A stretch of 64,000 nt of DNA from Chloroflexota bacterium (GCA_038040265.1 JBBPIP010000003.1:31573-95572); one strand, 5' to 3'. Numbered from the stretch's first letter, positions 4,026-49,640 are shown. Program-made: numbers and translations. The notes: generated by a model not told the origin, from the sequence alone.

Positions 4026-4098
4026 CTCGTCGCGGGTAAACCGCTCCTCGCTCGGCCTGCTCTCGCCGCCCGAGAACGCGCGCTAGAGTGCGCGCGAG

Positions 4099-5448
4099 TT
4101 GCTGATCGAGCAGTTCTTCGACGCGGGCCTGGGGCATGCGAGCTATCTCGTCGCGGACCCCGATGCGGGTGTCGCGTTCCTCGTCGACCCCGACCGGAAC
4201 CTCGACACGTATCTCGCGGCGGCCGCGCGTCTCGGGGTCCTGATCACAGACTCGTTCGAGACGCACGTCCACAACGACTACGTCTCAGGGTCCCGCGCCC
4301 TCGCCGACCTTCGCCCGATCACGGTGCACGCCGGACAGAATGCGGAACTCGCGTACCCACACGCTTCGCACGCGGACGGCGAGGTCATACAGGTCGGCGA
4401 GCTCGCGGTGCGTTGCGTAGCGACGCCCGGTCACACCCCCGAGCACGTCGCTTATCTCGTCGCCGATCTGCGTCGATCCGACGATCCGCAGTACCTCTTC
4501 TCGGGCGGCGCGCTCCTCGTGGGGCAGATCGCGCGCGTCGACCTTCTCGGTCCCAAGCTCGAGGAGGAGCTCGCGCGATCGGCCTACGACACACTTCGCG
4601 ATCGCGTTCTGCCGCTCGCCGACTACGTCGCGGTCTTTCCGACGCACGGCGGCGGCAGCGCGTGCTCAGCCGAGGTCGCAGGCTCGCGCTGGACCACGCT
4701 CGGATTCGAGCGACGTCACAACCGCGTCGCGCGTTCGGCCGCGGGCGATTATCCGGCGTTTCGAGCGACGATCGACGAGGGGTTGCCGATCGCACCCGCT
4801 TACTACCCTCATGTCCGCGCGCTCAACGCGCGCGGCGCGCCGATCCATCCGCGCGCTCCATTGCCCTTCTTACGGGAGATTCCTCGGGGCGCGGTACGCA
4901 TCGACCCGCGGCCGCCGCACGTGTACGGGCCGGGCCATCGACCCGACGCGCTCAACGTGGTCGCGAACGATTCCTTCGCGGCGCGAGTCGGAGCAGCGGT
5001 AGCGTTCGGGTCGCCCATCGTCATCCTCACAGTCGACGCCGAACAGGCCGAGCGGCTCCGCCAACAGCTCTCGGTCATCGGCTATGACGACGTCCGTGGT
5101 TATGCCTCTCCCGATCCGGCACCCGGTGAGGAGTCGCGGCGCATCGAGCAGCTCGATCCTCGAGCGGCCGCCGCACGCGCAGCCGAGGGCGCACTTCTCC
5201 TCGACGTTCGCGAGATGTCTGAATGGAATTCGGGTCACGCGCCAGACGCGGTTCACATTCCATACGAGCAGCTTCGCGAACGCGCGCACGAGATCACTGT
5301 CGACCGTCCGGTCGTCACCTACTGCGCCAGTGGCGTCCGCTCGAGCCTTGCGTCGAGCATGCTCGAGGCGTCAGGGCACGACGTTGCGAATCTCCGCGGT
5401 GGGTTCACCGCCTGGCGCAACGCTGGACTTTCGATAGCCGAGAAATAA
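4099..5448 (+). CDS. MBL-fold hydrolase fused to two rhodanese domains (CstB-like persulfide dioxygenase-sulfurtransferase architecture)
   Basis: TTG start. It has the metal motif THVHNDY and TPGHTPEH. The C-terminal rhodanese carries the active loop YCASGVRSS. Confidence 0.85.
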   Translation: MLIEQFFDAGLGHASYLVADPDAGVAFLVDPDRNLDTYLAAAARLGVLITDSFETHVHNDYVSGSRALADLRPITVHAGQNAELAYPHASHADGEVIQVGELAVRCVATPGHTPEHVAYLVADLRRSDDPQYLFSGGALLVGQIARVDLLGPKLEEELARSAYDTLRDRVLPLADYVAVFPTHGGGSACSAEVAGSRWTTLGFERRHNRVARSAAGDYPAFRATIDEGLPIAPAYYPHVRALNARGAPIHPRAPLPFLREIPRGAVRIDPRPPHVYGPGHRPDALNVVANDSFAARVGAAVAFGSPIVILTVDAEQAERLRQQLSVIGYDDVRGYASPDPAPGEESRRIEQLDPRAAAARAAEGALLLDVREMSEWNSGHAPDAVHIPYEQLRERAHEITVDRPVVTYCASGVRSSLASSMLEASGHDVANLRGGFTAWRNAGLSIAEK

Positions 5449-44684: not shown

Positions 44685-44975
44685 TCAGGTGGCGAGCGCG
44701 CGGATCTCGCGTGCGATCACCACGTCCTCACGCGCCGTGACCACGAGCACAGCGATCGGAGCAGCGACCAGAACGCGATCGCCCTTGCCTGACCCGTCGT
44801 CGACGTCTGGCACGCCGATCGAAGCGAGACGACGCACGATCGCCGTCCGCACGCTCGCGGCGTGCTCGCCGATCCCGCCGGTGAACACGACCGCGTCCAG
44901 ACGCGGGAGTGCCGTCGCCGCCGCCGCGATCGCTGGGGCGGCGGACCGTTCGAACACCGCGATCGCGAGCGCCGC
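44685..44975 (-). pseudogene. acetate kinase 3' fragment (last ~96 codons only)
   Basis: [56 protein letters not shown]... aligns with the C-terminus of ackA at 48537..49640. An in-frame TGA lies immediately upstream. The two copies share identical runs of 28 and 32 nt. Confidence 0.8.
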
Positions 44976-45018: not shown

Positions 45019-45087
45019 AGGGCCTTTCGGCTCGTCAGCGGGGCCATTTGGCCCTATGTGTTGTCGGTCTTAGGGCCCAAGGTGACC
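45019..45087. promoter_or_regulatory. three phased 5-4-5 dyads upstream of the Rieske operon
   Basis: The sites are 45019 AGGGCC-TTTC-GGCTCG, 45040 GGGGCC-ATTT-GGCCCT and 45072 AGGGCC-CAAG-GTGACC. They are spaced 21 and 32 bp apart. Confidence 0.55.
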
Positions 45088-45167: not shown

Positions 45168-45695
45168 GTGACGCACCAAGTTGGCGAGCCGAACGAAGCC
45201 CGCGGGCCGAACGAAGCGCGCGATCTCGGTAGACGGGACTTCATCAGCACCATCGGATTTTGGATCGCGACGGTGGCGTCGGCTGCAATCCTCGGTATCC
45301 CTTCCGCCCGCTTCGCGGTCGGCAAGTCCTTGGAAAAGGTGGTGGAGCACTGGGTTCCGGTCGGTGCCGTTGATGCGCTCAAGCCTGGCGAGTTCACATC
45401 TGTCGTCTATTCGTTCCGGGTCAAGGATGCGTGGCGCGAGGTGAAGAAGGAGGGGCTCATCTACGTGCGACCGGCACCGCCGGGAGGGGCCAGCGACTTC
45501 CAGGCGCTGTCCGGCGTCTGCACGCATCTGGGGTGCAATGTGCGGTGGAGCAAAGAGACGTCGCGTTTCGCCTGCCCCTGCCATTCCGGCGTTTACGACT
45601 CCGACGGAGCCGTGATCTCCGGTCCCCCACCGAGGCCGCTTCGCCAGCTCGAGACGCGAGTCACCGAAGACGGCGTTCTCGAAGCGAACATCTAG
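45168..45695 (+). CDS. Rieske [2Fe-2S] protein with a Tat-type signal anchor
   Basis: GTG 45168 follows GAGGGAG. It has [14 protein letters not shown] and CPCHSG. Confidence 0.85.
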
Positions 45696-45700
45696 CCGCC

Positions 45701-46753
45701 ATGAGCACAGTCCTTCGTTGGCTTGATCAGAGGACCGGCTGGAGCGGGCCCATACGAACCATCTTCCGCTACCCCGTGCCGGCGCACGCACATCACAATC
45801 CGCTCTTCACCATGGGCTCGCTGCTCTTGGTGCTCTTTGGGGTCCAAGCCTTCACGGGCGCGCTCATGGCGTTCTACTACGACCCTTCGCCCGAAGGTGC
45901 CTATGCCAGCGTGGACTACATGCAGTTCATCCTGCCGTTCGGGTGGCTCGTGCGGGGTGTCCATCACTGGGCGGCCTCGGCGATGGTCGTCATCGTGGTG
46001 CTCCATCTCCTGCGGACCTACCTCTATAGCGCGTACAAGAAGCCCCGGGAGTTGACATGGTTGGTGGGGGTAGTTCTCCTGCTGATCACCGTTTCCTTCG
46101 GCTTCACCGGATACCTGCTGCCCTGGGACCAGAAGGGTTTCTGGGCGACGCAGGTCGGCACCGAGATCGCGGGCTCGGTCCCCGCAATCGGGTCTGCGCT
46201 CCGCGACCTGATGCGCGGCGGCGCAGACATGGGCATTGCCACGCTGACGCGTTTCTACTCAGTGCACATGCTCCTGCTGCCGGGAGCGTTCGTGGTGCTC
46301 GTGCTGGCTCACCTGGCGCTCATGCGCCGCCACGGGCTCGCGCCGGCACTCGTCCGCAAGGGCGAAGGGCAGGAAAAGACCGTGCCCTTCTATCCGACGC
46401 ATCTCGCGATCGAAGCGGGGGTCGCCCTCGTCGTCATCGTGGGTCTGGTTGTGGCGGCAAACCTGGTCCCGGCACCGCTGGACCTGCGGGCCGACCCGAC
46501 CGACACGTCCTTCGTCCCACGTCCCGACTGGTACTTCCTCTTTTACTTCCAGCTGCTCACGTACTTCCCAGGCGGCCTCGAGGCCATCGGCACGGTGGCA
46601 ATACCGCTCTTCTTCTTCGGCTCGCTCGTTCTGCTGCCGTTCATCGATCGAGGAGCGGAGCGGAGACCTTGGCGAAAGCCGGTCACGTCCGTTGCGTTCG
46701 TTCTCTATGCGGTTGCGGTCATTCTCCTGACGATTCGTGGTGCCAGTGGCTAG
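45701..46753 (+). CDS. cytochrome b (b6 plus subunit IV fused type)
   Basis: ATG 45701. The four haem His residues sit in GVHHWAAS..VVLHLL and YSVHMLL..VLAHLAL. It also has the PDWYFLFYFQ motif. Confidence 0.85.
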   Translation: MSTVLRWLDQRTGWSGPIRTIFRYPVPAHAHHNPLFTMGSLLLVLFGVQAFTGALMAFYYDPSPEGAYASVDYMQFILPFGWLVRGVHHWAASAMVVIVVLHLLRTYLYSAYKKPRELTWLVGVVLLLITVSFGFTGYLLPWDQKGFWATQVGTEIAGSVPAIGSALRDLMRGGADMGIATLTRFYSVHMLLLPGAFVVLVLAHLALMRRHGLAPALVRKGEGQEKTVPFYPTHLAIEAGVALVVIVGLVVAANLVPAPLDLRADPTDTSFVPRPDWYFLFYFQLLTYFPGGLEAIGTVAIPLFFFGSLVLLPFIDRGAERRPWRKPVTSVAFVLYAVAVILLTIRGASG

Positions 46754-46799
46754 CGACATCTCAGCGACGGCCGGGGCGGCTGAAAGGATTCGTGGACGT

Positions 46800-47780
46800 A
46801 TGTGGAAGCGGCTCGTCGGCTTAATTCTCGTAGTCCTGATTGCCGGGGCCTGCGGCGCAGCTAACGCGGCCGCGCCCAACGAGCTCCTCGCGGCAAAAGG
46901 AGCGCCGAGCTCGCTGGCGCCTGACGACGGGGCGTGGAGGGATGCCGGCGTCATGACCGTCACGACGGCGGTGATCGCGGGTTCCGCGGCCAAACAAGGC
47001 GTCGAGGTCCAAGCGCAGGCCCTGTACAGCGGCACGGACATGTGGTTCCGGTTCGTTTGGGCCGATCCCACGCAAAGCGCAGACCGCTTCTGGACGTACG
47101 ACGGTACGAAGTGGACGTCCGGGGGCAACGAGGATCGTCTCTCGCTCCTCTGGGAGATCAGTCCCCTGGACAGGTTCCAGACGCGCGGCTGCACCGCGGC
47201 GTGCCATAACCCCGTGTCCGATCCCCTGGAGAAGTGGTACATGGTCACGCCCAGCTTCGATGCTCGTGGTGACAACTGGCAGTGGATCGCAGGCCGAACC
47301 AACCCAGTCGGCCAGGCCGACGACAAGACCCTCGTCGGTTTCCTTCCGACCGCCACGAGCCTGGGCTCGAGCTTCGTGAACGACGCGACCGAGAAGGGCG
47401 GCTCCACGAACAACAGGACCGCGGACGGCTTGGGTCCGGCGAAGATGCAGGATCCGTCGAAGCCGGCTTCCGCGGGAAGCGGATTCCTCCTCGCGTCTGA
47501 GGCCGTCAACATCGACGTGTCCAAGTTCAAGGCCGGTGACAAGGTCCCGCGCGACCTGCTCGCGCCGACGGTGGGCAGTCGCGGCGACATCGATGCCAAG
47601 GGCGTCTATGCCAGCGGCAAGTGGACGGTGGTCCTCCATCGCCACCTGGACACCGGGAACGACGATGACATCCAGTTCGTTCCGGGTAGGACCATTCCGT
47701 TCGGCCTGGCAGTGTTCGATAACGTCTCAGGGTTCAGTCATACGGTGTCGGGCGATCCTCTCTATCTGAAGTTCAAGTAG
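46800..47780 (+). CDS. lipoprotein with an EB_dh / cytochrome c-552-like haem-binding domain (one CxxCH)
   Basis: ATG 46800. It has the lipobox LIAGAC and the haem c motif CTAACH. The domain reads GTDMWFRFVWAD...LAVFDN. Confidence 0.7.
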   Translation: MWKRLVGLILVVLIAGACGAANAAAPNELLAAKGAPSSLAPDDGAWRDAGVMTVTTAVIAGSAAKQGVEVQAQALYSGTDMWFRFVWADPTQSADRFWTYDGTKWTSGGNEDRLSLLWEISPLDRFQTRGCTAACHNPVSDPLEKWYMVTPSFDARGDNWQWIAGRTNPVGQADDKTLVGFLPTATSLGSSFVNDATEKGGSTNNRTADGLGPAKMQDPSKPASAGSGFLLASEAVNIDVSKFKAGDKVPRDLLAPTVGSRGDIDAKGVYASGKWTVVLHRHLDTGNDDDIQFVPGRTIPFGLAVFDNVSGFSHTVSGDPLYLKFK

Positions 47781-47854: not shown

Positions 47855-47870
47855 GGTGCCATTCGGCCCT
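47855..47870. promoter_or_regulatory. 5-4-5 dyad upstream of the PNPOx-like gene
   Basis: GGTGCC-ATTC-GGCCCT, which is AGGGCC-GAAT-GGCACC on the other strand. It lies 110 nt upstream of ATG 47980. Confidence 0.5.
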
Positions 47871-47979: not shown

Positions 47980-48441
47980 ATGAGAAGTCTGAGTCACGAG
48001 GCGGACGAAGCACAGTTCGACGCGGCGATTGAAGTTCTAACGGAGGACGAGTGTGTCGCCCGGCTCCACTTTCGCGACATTGGGCGGATCGCCTTTGACT
48101 TCGAAGGCAAGGTAGAGATCTTTCCGGTCAACTACGGCATGGACGGCGCGATCATCGTCTTCCGGACCGGCCCCGGCACTAAGCTCGAGAGGGTGCCAAA
48201 GTCAGAGGTCGCGTTTGAAATAGATAGCTGGGATCCTGAGATCGGCGTCGGTTGGAGCGTGGTGGCTCGAGGCCTCGCCGAGGAGATCACTACGGATCCG
48301 GGACGAGTAGCGGAGCATCTCCGCTGGGTGCCCGTCCATCCGGTCGCTCCCGGCGACCGCTCGCATTGGCTCGCGATCAAGCCGACCGAAATCACCGGAC
48401 GGGAGTTCCACGTGCCGCCTCCTCAGGGTGAGCGTGCGTAG
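47980..48441 (+). CDS. pyridoxamine 5'-phosphate oxidase family (split-barrel flavin/F420-binding) protein
   Basis: 153 aa. Sequence reads ...IGRIAFDFEGKVEIFPVNY...FEIDSWDPE..GWSVVARG. Confidence 0.7.
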   Translation: MRSLSHEADEAQFDAAIEVLTEDECVARLHFRDIGRIAFDFEGKVEIFPVNYGMDGAIIVFRTGPGTKLERVPKSEVAFEIDSWDPEIGVGWSVVARGLAEEITTDPGRVAEHLRWVPVHPVAPGDRSHWLAIKPTEITGREFHVPPPQGERA

Positions 48442-48536: not shown

Positions 48537-49640
48537 TCAATCGCTGAGCGCACGGACCTCGCGCGCGATCACGAGATCCTCACGCGCCACGACGACGACG
48601 ACCGTGACCGGACCGGCGACGAGGACTCGGTCGCCGTCGACCGCGTTGTCAGCAACGCTTGGTGCGCCGATCGAAGCGAGACGACGCACGATTCCCGCCC
48701 GCACGGTAGCGGCGTGCTCGCCGATCCCGCCCGTGAACACGACCGCGTCCAGACGCGGGAGTGCGGTCGCCGCCGCGGCGATCGCTCCAGCCGCCGAACG
48801 CTCGAATACGGCGATGGCGAGCGCGGCGCGGTCGTCGGTCGTCGCGATCGCGACGAGCTCGCGCATCTCGGCCGTCCGACCGGACAGCGCGAGCAGACCC
48901 GAGTGATGCTCGAGCACGTCCTCGAGCGCGCGCGCGTCGAGCCTGTGGTCCCGCTGCGCGGCGAGCAGGATGCCGGGGTCGACCGATCCCGCCCGCGTTC
49001 CCATGACGAGGCCCTCGAGAGGCGTCATTCCCATCGAGGTGCTGACCGAGCGGCCGTGCCACACCGCGGTCACCGAGCAGCCATTGCCAAGGTGGGCGAC
49101 GACGATGCCGAGGTCGGCGCGCCCCAGGAGCGCGGCCGCGCGCTCGACCGACCACGTGACCGAGAGACCGTGGAATCCATACCGCCGATACCCCCACTCC
49201 CAGTACCAGTCATACGGAAGCGCGTAGACGTACCCCTCCTCCGGCAGCGTCGCGTGAAAGGCCGAATCGAAAGCTGCCGCGTGCGGGATGCGAGGTAGCG
49301 CGCTGCGCGCAGCGGCGATGACCTCAGCAGCTGGGGGGTTGTGGAGCGGCGCGAGCCAGGCAAGCTCGCGGATCCTCTTCAGCACGGCGTCATCGATCAC
49401 GGTCGTTCGTGTGAAGACCGAGCCGCCGTGGACCACGCGATGGCCGACCGCGTCGATGGTGGCGACATCGACTCCCGCATCTTTCACAGCTCGGAGCGTC
49501 TGACGAAACGCCTCGGACGCTTCGCCGACGCCGCGCATGGGAACCGTGACGCTGGCCTCGGCGAGCTCCGAATCGCGGGCGAGCACACTTGCTTTGAGCG
49601 TCGACGACCCGGCGTTCAGGACGAGCACGCGCTGCTGCAT
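48537..49640 (-). CDS. ackA: acetate kinase
   Basis: Internal ATG 49640 ([16 protein letters not shown]). It contains HRVVHGG and GFHGLS. Confidence 0.9.

Follow-up and report, generated by a model that had tools for sequence, protein, structure and literature searches.

Complexes built on a Rieske iron-sulphur protein and a cytochrome b are central energy converters, and the subunit through which electrons leave them has been replaced repeatedly, with cytochrome c1, cytochrome f, di-haem and tetra-haem cytochromes c and the archaeal protein CbsA all found in this position. CbsA has the fold of the ethylbenzene dehydrogenase (EB_dh) family and plays the role of cytochrome c1. EB_dh-type subunits also sit with NarB and NarC in the nitrate reductase (Nar) clusters of haloarchaea, and the gamma subunits of type II dimethyl sulphoxide (DMSO) reductases hold a haem b non-covalently via Met/Lys and always occur with alpha/beta partners. 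The SoxLN-CbsAB complex is named in PMC4122944, while PMC13741234 treats CbsA beside the EB_dh-like protein FoxC and mentions the haem ligands of the gamma subunit EbdC. The 64,000-nucleotide stretch of Chloroflexota bacterium DNA analysed here (GCA_038040265.1, JBBPIP010000003.1:31573-95572; "the window") carries, at positions 45168-47780, three genes for a Rieske protein, a cytochrome b and an EB_dh-type lipoprotein, together called the trio. With a probability of about 0.62, the trio is a complete and self-contained alternative menaquinol:periplasmic-acceptor oxidoreductase, in which the EB_dh haem protein takes the part of cytochrome c1 or f. A full-text literature search found no description of the trio, in agreement with an earlier interpretation made from the DNA alone (the sequence-only reading), which had called the module uncharacterised.

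The Rieske protein and the cytochrome b

The three genes lie co-directionally on the + strand in the order Rieske, cytochrome b, EB_dh. Ribosome-binding sites are present at the gene starts, and the gaps of 5 nucleotides (Rieske stop to cytochrome b) and 46 nucleotides (cytochrome b to EB_dh) bear out the tight module of the sequence-only reading. The Rieske gene starts with GTG at 45168, preceded by the ribosome-binding site GAGGGAG, and its product matches PF00355 (E-values of the Pfam matches are given in Table 1). The protein contains both cluster boxes, CTHLGC and CPCHSG, and its N-terminus shows the twin-arginine motif GRRDF followed by a hydrophobic stretch, which corresponds to an uncleaved signal-anchor of the twin-arginine translocation (Tat) pathway; the Tat-anchored Rieske protein first proposed is found with all of its features. 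Its best NCBIfam matches are b6f-type PetC and QcrA, all far under the respective cut-offs.

The cytochrome b unites a b6 part (PF00033) and a subunit-IV part (PF00032) in one polypeptide, as had been claimed. It contains the four haem-ligating histidines, His88/102 and His189/204, in b6-type spacing, seven hydrophobic helices, and a PDWY motif at residue 275 in the quinol oxidation (Qo) site. Residue analysis of the 350-amino-acid protein revealed no cysteine, and it therefore lacks a covalent haem ci. Against the cytochrome b6 model NF002990 it reaches 231 bits (cut-off 325).

A Tat-exported Rieske protein with CxHxGC...CxCH boxes and a cytochrome b with four histidines and a P-x-W-Y motif place the trio in the bc superfamily. 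The hallmarks of the b6f/Bacillus type, a split b6 and subunit IV and the haem ci cysteine, are missing from it. The QcrCAB models are matched far below threshold (NF050121, 52 bits with a cut-off of 275; NF050120, 127 bits with a cut-off of 500), and the Pfam search detected no class I cytochrome c in the trio operon, hence no di-haem subunit of QcrC type. The position that cytochrome c1 (PF02167) would hold in a canonical bc1 complex is occupied by the EB_dh gene.

The EB_dh protein and its C-x3-C-H motif

The EB_dh gene starts with ATG at 46800 behind GAAAGGA. Its product begins with MWKRLVGLILVVLIAGAC, which includes a lipoprotein-type signal (...LIAGAC), and a lipobox-like N-terminus is shared by 57 of 104 homologues. 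The proposal that the third protein resembles EB_dh or cytochrome c-552 is upheld by the Pfam search, in which PF09459 is matched with 115.7 bits (cut-off 33.3), and by structure prediction. AlphaFold2, given 35 homologues, produced a confident model (pLDDT 87.3, pTM 0.85), whose best Foldseek matches are the gamma subunits NxrC (7b04_C, 1.8e-11) and EbdC (2ivf_C, 5.8e-10, TM-score 0.73), followed by family 9 carbohydrate-binding modules (CBM9). The predicted fold is the EB_dh/DOMON/CBM9 beta-sandwich. Sequence similarity to the gamma subunits is limited to three strands, with 12-15% identity overall, and the gamma-subunit model TIGR03477 gives 34.1 bits against a cut-off of 169.85. The protein has the fold of a gamma subunit, yet falls short of the TIGR03477 threshold for one.

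The only redox signature originally noted in this protein was a haem c site, CTAACH. The motif exists and is conserved, but it is not a canonical CxxCH site, because three residues separate the cysteines (Cys131, Cys135, His136). This C-x3-C-H spacing is also the reason why CTAACH was missed by a CxxCH scan of the genome. The motif is invariant in 35/35 aligned homologues and occurs in 102/104 database homologues and in 105/109 homologous open reading frames of the fetched loci. A profile search of 1.84 billion proteins returned 491 clusters (50% identity) at E<=1e-30; among the 147 top cluster representatives newly obtained in this way, 144 contain it. The residues inside the motif vary freely (e.g. 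CTAACH, CAVLCH, CAVTCH). In relatives with tandem domains the number of C-x3-C-H motifs equals that of EB_dh domains, and in some relatives the protein is fused with a cytochrome c of class I or multihaem type. P0105, P0106 and P0113, proteins of 990-1300 amino acids, contain three or four tandem C-x3-C-H EB_dh domains and, judged by their motifs, would represent a beta-sandwich "multihaem" architecture.

C-x3-C-H sites are known from some cytochromes c3 and are tolerated by the cytochrome c maturation (Ccm) system. CcmF is encoded in the genome (PF16327, 3.6e-56; PF01578, 3.7e-33), such that the EB_dh protein combines an export signal with available haem-attachment machinery, although it lacks the canonical CxxCH of c-type cytochromes. 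Because the motif is conserved while its inner residues vary, because motifs track domains and because CcmF is present, one haem is most probably bound covalently through C-x3-C-H. Candidates for the sixth ligand are M216 (conserved in 88% of the homologues), H314 (77%, Lys in four members) and M148 (74%). When the hidden Markov model alignment to EbdC is extended without gaps, M148 and H314 come to lie at most about three positions away from the EbdC residues Met108 and Lys201, which offers a lead only.

Conservation and distribution of the trio

Across about 35 trio loci, relatives whose identity ranges from 82% to about 37% retain the gene order Rieske, cytochrome b, EB_dh. The outer genes vary between loci and encode catalase, SbcCD, pentose-phosphate enzymes, imelysin-like proteins and others. 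The association of the three genes in this window therefore recurs in relatives independently of the surrounding genes, a point on which the sequence-only reading had made its proposal depend. In the closest relative, the metagenome-assembled genome (MAG) "Chloroflexi bacterium UBA4730", the EB_dh protein, cytochrome b and Rieske protein are 82%, 90% and 77% identical, respectively. Further carriers are MAGs of Dehalococcoidia, Anaerolineae, Caldilineaceae, Ardenticatenaceae, Promineifilaceae, Thermoflexales and Chloroflexia, and the trio is also present in Trueperaceae (Deinococcota), with identities reaching down to about 37%.

In some Trueperaceae MAGs a single Rieske/cytochrome b pair has two C-x3-C-H EB_dh genes in its vicinity. 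One of the two copies in L019 (EB_dh genes at 1485-2357 and 4061-4942) is located upstream of Rieske, and in L033, which together with L020 covers 179-203 kb of contig CBDDAI010000001.1, EB_dh precedes Rieske and cytochrome b. Because of the L019 and L033 layouts, gene order is not fixed in this family.

The trio is rare. Matches at E<=1e-30 were obtained in at least 11 of 401 sampled Chloroflexota genomes (2.7%), a lower bound since five first-look candidates were scored per genome, and two genomes of the same family had no match. Among 61 sampled Trueperaceae genomes, five (8%) carry it. This sparse occurrence in both samples marks the module as accessory. In the five Trueperaceae carriers the trio cytochrome b is the sole cytochrome b gene, which indicates that the trio moved and persists without another bc subunit; from its distribution, the module is apparently horizontally acquired or mobile. 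The same five genomes encode two to four members of the haem-copper oxidase family and a full alternative complex III (ACIII). An argument that the trio is the only complex III in Trueperaceae was dropped, since ACIII is complete in these genomes.

The wider C-x3-C-H EB_dh family recurrently joins membrane quinol modules or periplasmic electron-transfer proteins. MAGs of Desulfobacterota type show a variant with the order Rieske, EB_dh, EB_dh, cytochrome b (L056, L057, L060, L064, L070, L071, L075, L082 and L104). In L105 (266-4109) a family member lies beside a c7-like cytochrome, a 4Fe-4S protein (Fer4) and NrfD, which form an ACIII/Nrf-like quinol module, and in L106 (6001-13056) one lies beside large MtrC-like multihaem cytochromes. 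From these gene neighbourhoods, members of the family may act generally as electron adaptors in the periplasm.

The known carriers of the trio include heterotrophs from soil, sludge and marine habitats, and this bears on the direction of electron flow. The bc complexes of acidophilic iron oxidisers are known to run in reverse. By analogy, the EB_dh protein could be the entry point for electrons of a high-potential donor such as Fe(II), which would be pushed to quinone by the proton-motive force; EB_dh-like cytochromes b are implicated in Fe(II) oxidation in Sulfolobales (PMC13741234, PMC10654088). For the FoxC/CbsA proteins of that order, such an entry of Fe(II) electrons has been proposed. 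For the trio this is very improbable, given the heterotrophic carriers and the heterotroph-type genes among the scanned neighbours (phosphoketolase, ackA). The PDWY motif and the usual menaquinone of the phylum would also point to a low-potential pool, into which uphill flow is costly.

Respiratory inventory of the genome

The genome sample, derived from permafrost or soil metagenomes, comprises 2.68 Mb on 37 contigs and is 84.6% complete, so that every genome-level absence is provisional. Two cytochrome b loci were identified, the trio and a locus on contig C12 (C12:22126-27356; L004 6126-11356), which encodes an FAD/FeS protein, cytochrome b6, subunit IV, a Rieske protein and a di-haem class I cytochrome c. 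Its cytochrome b6 has the WCMGG cysteine typical of haem ci, and its split subunit IV has an APWY Qo motif. A clade of APWY-type Rieske/cytochrome b complexes has already been described for Chloroflexi and other bacteria (PMC4122944). With an APWY-type complex on C12, the trio is a second and different complex, and it coexists as an accessory module with this Rieske/b6/di-haem c complex. It is not the ordinary and only bc complex of the organism, the outcome that would have undone the sequence-only reading. The first C12 gene, which abuts the cytochrome b6 gene, encodes a 673-amino-acid GltD-like FAD and multi-4Fe-4S protein (Pyr_redox_2, Fer4_20, Fer4), a layout reminiscent of the Rieske/cytochrome b complexes with an NAD(P) link that have been proposed in anammox bacteria.

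The search for further complex III genes thus yielded the APWY-type locus and no ACIII in the genome, where the sole NrfD-type protein belongs to an FdnG-like enzyme with selenocysteine (Sec). PF02167 (cytochrome c1) has no match anywhere in the genome, and no bd oxidase was found. The single oxidase is an A-type caa3 enzyme (COX1 and a CoxII-cytochrome c fusion). Anchored class I cytochromes c are present, and the EB_dh gene is single-copy.

A PF00384 search detected three molybdenum (Mo) enzymes in the genome. One is cytoplasmic and Nas/Fdh-like, with a NirD-like Rieske protein as its neighbour, the second is YdeP-like, and the third is the Sec-containing FdnG-like enzyme with its NrfD anchor. 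The FdnG-like molybdoenzyme (C8:74772-80520) is Tat-exported, with an in-frame TGA after ...EQQARV that probably encodes selenocysteine; some kilobases further downstream follows the gene for the NrfD-type membrane subunit, and about 1 kb ahead of the enzyme gene there is a GGGCC-N4 dyad (C8:73697). The Nas/Fdh-like molybdoenzyme (C23:7659-11715) has 759 amino acids, and a small Rieske-like, perhaps NirD-like, open reading frame lies directly downstream of its gene.

These enzymes matter for the possibility that the EB_dh protein is a conventional gamma-type haem b subunit of a type II Mo enzyme encoded elsewhere, with the Rieske/cytochrome b pair as its private quinol link. The gamma subunits NxrC and EbdC share the EB_dh fold, and haloarchaeal Nar clusters pair NarB/NarC with an EB_dh-type subunit. 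None of the three PF00384 matches is Nar/Nxr/Ebd-like, and on this ground the gamma-subunit assignment was rejected. No such catalytic subunit lies near the trio in the roughly 35 loci either, so that the alpha/beta Mo-FeS partner of a gamma subunit is missing from locus and genome. The TIGR03477 score is 34 bits instead of 170, and the invariant C-x3-C-H marks the EB_dh clade of the trio, the motif having been compared within that clade. A role as gamma subunit is therefore most improbable.

Locus layout and upstream dyads

The trio is flanked by genes for a universal stress protein (Usp), an acetate kinase relic, a PNPOx-like protein, acetate kinase (ackA) and phosphoketolase (Table 1). No genes for cytochrome c1, a di-haem cytochrome c, an oxidase or a Mo enzyme lie within about 5 kb, which agrees with the initial statement that none is adjacent.

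Table 1. Features of the trio locus; positions are counted from the first nucleotide of the window.
Feature	Position	Strand	Evidence or remark
Acetate kinase 3'-end relic	44685-44975	-	PF00871, C-terminal part, 6.5e-11
Dyad 1	45020-45033	+	GGGCCTTTCGGCTC, GGGCC-N4-GGCCC type
Dyad 2	45041-45054	+	GGGCCATTTGGCCC, perfect
Dyad 3	45073-45086	+	GGGCCCAAGGTGAC, GGGCC-N4-GGCCC type
Rieske [2Fe-2S] protein	45168-45695	+	PF00355, 3.5e-11; GTG start
Cytochrome b, 350 aa	45701-46753	+	PF00033, 1.8e-52; PF00032, 5.5e-9; ATG start
EB_dh-fold lipoprotein, 326 aa, presumed mono-haem c-type cytochrome replacing c1/f	46800-47780	+	PF09459, 4.3e-33; ATG start
C-x3-C-H motif codons (Cys131 TAA Cys135 His136)	47190-47207	+	homologue alignment
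Dyad 4	47856-47869	+	GTGCCATTCGGCCC, between EB_dh gene and PNPOx-like gene
PNPOx-like (Pyridox_ox_2) gene	47980-48441	+	PF12900, 4e-23
ackA, intact	48537-49640	-	brackets trio and PNPOx-like gene together with relic

The relic and the intact ackA gene form a direct repeat of 282 nucleotides (ackA 3' end; copies at 44685-44975 and 48537-48827) with 81% identity and a spacing of 3852, which brackets a block of 3.85 kb containing the trio and the PNPOx-like gene. In a genome of the same family, homology to the window extends precisely to the ackA 3' end, and the block is lacking. The order of genes in that genome is xfp-ackA, followed by an aconitase-like gene. The repeat and the empty site suggest an insertion with target duplication, and the arrangement as a whole fits gain of the block by insertion or rearrangement. 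The PNPOx-like gene is not conserved beside the trio in relatives; it has its own dyad within the same inserted block and is probably co-regulated with the trio, not a subunit of it.

A bracketed block that is absent from the same site of a related genome, together with the patchy distribution, could also be decaying passenger DNA without a working complex. The probability of this is almost negligible. The three reading frames are undisrupted and have start sites as well as ribosome-binding sites, every catalytic residue is present, and the GC content at third codon positions (0.74-0.81) is like that of host genes. With 37-91% identity in relatives, the proteins are conserved to a degree that implies selection. 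Transcripts of close relatives also exist: each of the three genes is partly represented in soil metatranscriptome contigs with 92-97% identity to the window, and close relatives of the trio are probably transcribed in situ. As these contigs stem from relatives and may contain DNA, they speak for a working complex with that reservation.

The three dyads announced upstream of the trio by the sequence-only reading were located 80-150 nucleotides before the Rieske start. The exact dyad has four copies in 2.68 Mb, compared with 20-116 for control dyads of the same composition, and is thus rare and not enriched; with a relaxed pattern, 27 of 112 sites lie outside coding-like open reading frames, a modest enrichment. 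Genes for Usp, PNPOx-like proteins, ackA and phosphoketolase are kinds of genes found in actinobacterial DosR-type regulons. From its dyads, the trio is probably under a DosR-like stress operator. The combination of DosR-like dyads with stress and fermentation neighbours leads to the proposal of induction under low oxygen or dormancy-type stress, and on these operator-like dyads and neighbours it is plausible that the trio is switched on under such conditions.

Such a setting would suit an exit of electrons from a surface-exposed EB_dh lipoprotein to an acceptor other than an oxidase, outside the cell or in the periplasm (e.g. metal oxides, humics or an unlinked reductase), with the module as an electron sink when oxygen is scarce. 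The DosR-like dyads, the Usp, ackA, phosphoketolase and PNPOx neighbourhood and the patchy, accessory distribution are in line with this, as is a genome with one A-type, presumably low-affinity oxidase and no bd oxidase found. One EB_dh relative adjoins MtrC-like multihaem cytochromes and some are fused to six to eight CxxCH sites. The regulation, however, is itself a prediction from sequence, no genes for multihaem or outer-surface cytochromes lie near the trio in the roughly 35 loci, and the CxxCH scan of its own genome, covering a subset of open reading frames filtered by third-position GC content, gave no multihaem candidate. Furthermore, a Rieske centre normally requires an acceptor of fairly high potential. 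An exit that bypasses the oxidase is accordingly judged unlikely, and a cytochrome c of the oxidase branch is preferred as the acceptor.

Proposed route of electrons

In the preferred interpretation, menaquinol would be oxidised at the PDWY-type Qo site of the seven-helix, two-haem cytochrome b. One electron would be recycled via haems bL and bH in a Q cycle, while the other would pass via the Tat-inserted Rieske cluster to the EB_dh protein, a lipid-anchored EB_dh/DOMON/CBM9 protein with one haem that would stand in for cytochrome c1 or f. In this genome, onward transfer could involve class I cytochromes c anchored in the membrane as well as the one caa3 oxidase, through its cytochrome c domain. 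The physical association of the three proteins, including the contact of the EB_dh protein with the Rieske protein, is inferred from conserved gene order.

Several points weigh against this interpretation. A module this rare is more easily understood as serving a niche than as a general complex III, and with ACIII in the Trueperaceae carriers the trio is nowhere shown to be indispensable or the sole route to an oxidase. The EB_dh protein, anchored only by lipid or signal, could be a tethered carrier instead of a fixed subunit. C-x3-C-H departs from the canonical CxxCH, covalent attachment being deduced from conservation, and a universally conserved sixth haem ligand is absent among the aligned homologues. 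The full-text literature search found no experimental characterisation for any C-x3-C-H EB_dh member. The incompleteness of the genome and the origin of the metatranscriptome contigs, both described above, have to be counted here as well.

A more far-reaching possibility is that C-x3-C-H EB_dh proteins are a new structural class of c-type cytochromes, in which a DOMON/CBM9-type beta-sandwich would bind haem covalently, and a general electron-exit adaptor of quinol modules (Rieske/cytochrome b, NrfCD-like), and hence a third invention of the c1/f function. As a surface-exposed lipoprotein in single-membrane Chloroflexota, such a protein could allow the trio to dump electrons on external acceptors during oxygen limitation while still pumping via the Q cycle. 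This extension is tentative and at present more doubtful than not.

In the source databases, homologues of the EB_dh protein mostly carry the name "hypothetical protein" or none, and those with a function-type name are called "ethylbenzene dehydrogenase-related protein". Owing to these names, annotation of soil and wastewater Chloroflexota probably logs a "bc complex" or an "ethylbenzene dehydrogenase" where a distinct respiratory module is encoded. To the known Rieske/cytochrome b complexes the trio would add an apparently mobile bacterial type whose haem subunit is a beta-sandwich protein with an uncommon haem motif. It is a testable case for the coupling of a Rieske centre to a cytochrome outside class I, and its acceptor and potential, once known, would alter the metabolic models of abundant uncultured Chloroflexota.

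Comparison with known systems

The closest functional precedent of the trio is the SoxLN-CbsAB complex of Sulfolobus and Acidianus. Both consist of a Rieske/cytochrome b core (SoxL and SoxN in the archaeal complex) and a tethered mono-haem protein outside class I in the place of cytochrome c1. SoxLN-CbsAB differs in being archaeal, in its non-covalent haem b (b558/566), its heavy glycosylation, the additional protein CbsB and a PPWF motif, whereas the trio is bacterial and is a three-gene operon with a PDWY motif, the EB_dh protein being a lipoprotein with an invariant C-x3-C-H. The S. acidocaldarius genome that served as a control contains a gene of the EB_dh family. The cytochrome c553 of the Aeropyrum pernix bc complex was also considered as a precedent and ruled out, being a 21-kDa protein with a CxxCH...M signature.

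The haloarchaeal Nar cluster is the closest genetic precedent, as Rieske (NarB), cytochrome b (NarC) and an EB_dh-type haem protein are encoded together. There, however, the EB_dh protein serves as gamma subunit to the Mo enzyme NarGH of the same cluster, while the trio has no Nar-like Mo enzyme nearby or in its genome and its EB_dh protein misses the TIGR03477 cut-off. The gamma subunits of type II DMSO reductases (EbdC, 2IVF_C; NxrC, 7B04_C; SerC; DdhC; NarM) have the same fold and belong to the same Pfam family as the trio protein, from which they differ by the low sequence identity given above.

Cytochrome f and Chlorobaculum c-556 are independent takers of the Rieske electron other than cytochrome c1. 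According to PMC10172866, c-556 is a membrane-anchored mono-haem acceptor for the Rieske protein in Chlorobaculum. Cytochrome f is mainly beta-sheet with one covalent haem, but it has a CxxCH motif, an N-terminal amino ligand and a C-terminal helix, in contrast to the EB_dh/CBM9-type sandwich, C-x3-C-H motif and N-terminal lipid anchor of the trio protein, and EB_dh is homologous to neither f nor c-556. The Desulfobacterota-type operons likewise combine the C-x3-C-H EB_dh family with a Rieske/cytochrome b core, although with two EB_dh genes between Rieske and cytochrome b. The trio is set apart from the systems compared as a bacterial, stand-alone unit of three genes without a Mo enzyme and with an invariant C-x3-C-H in its EB_dh protein.

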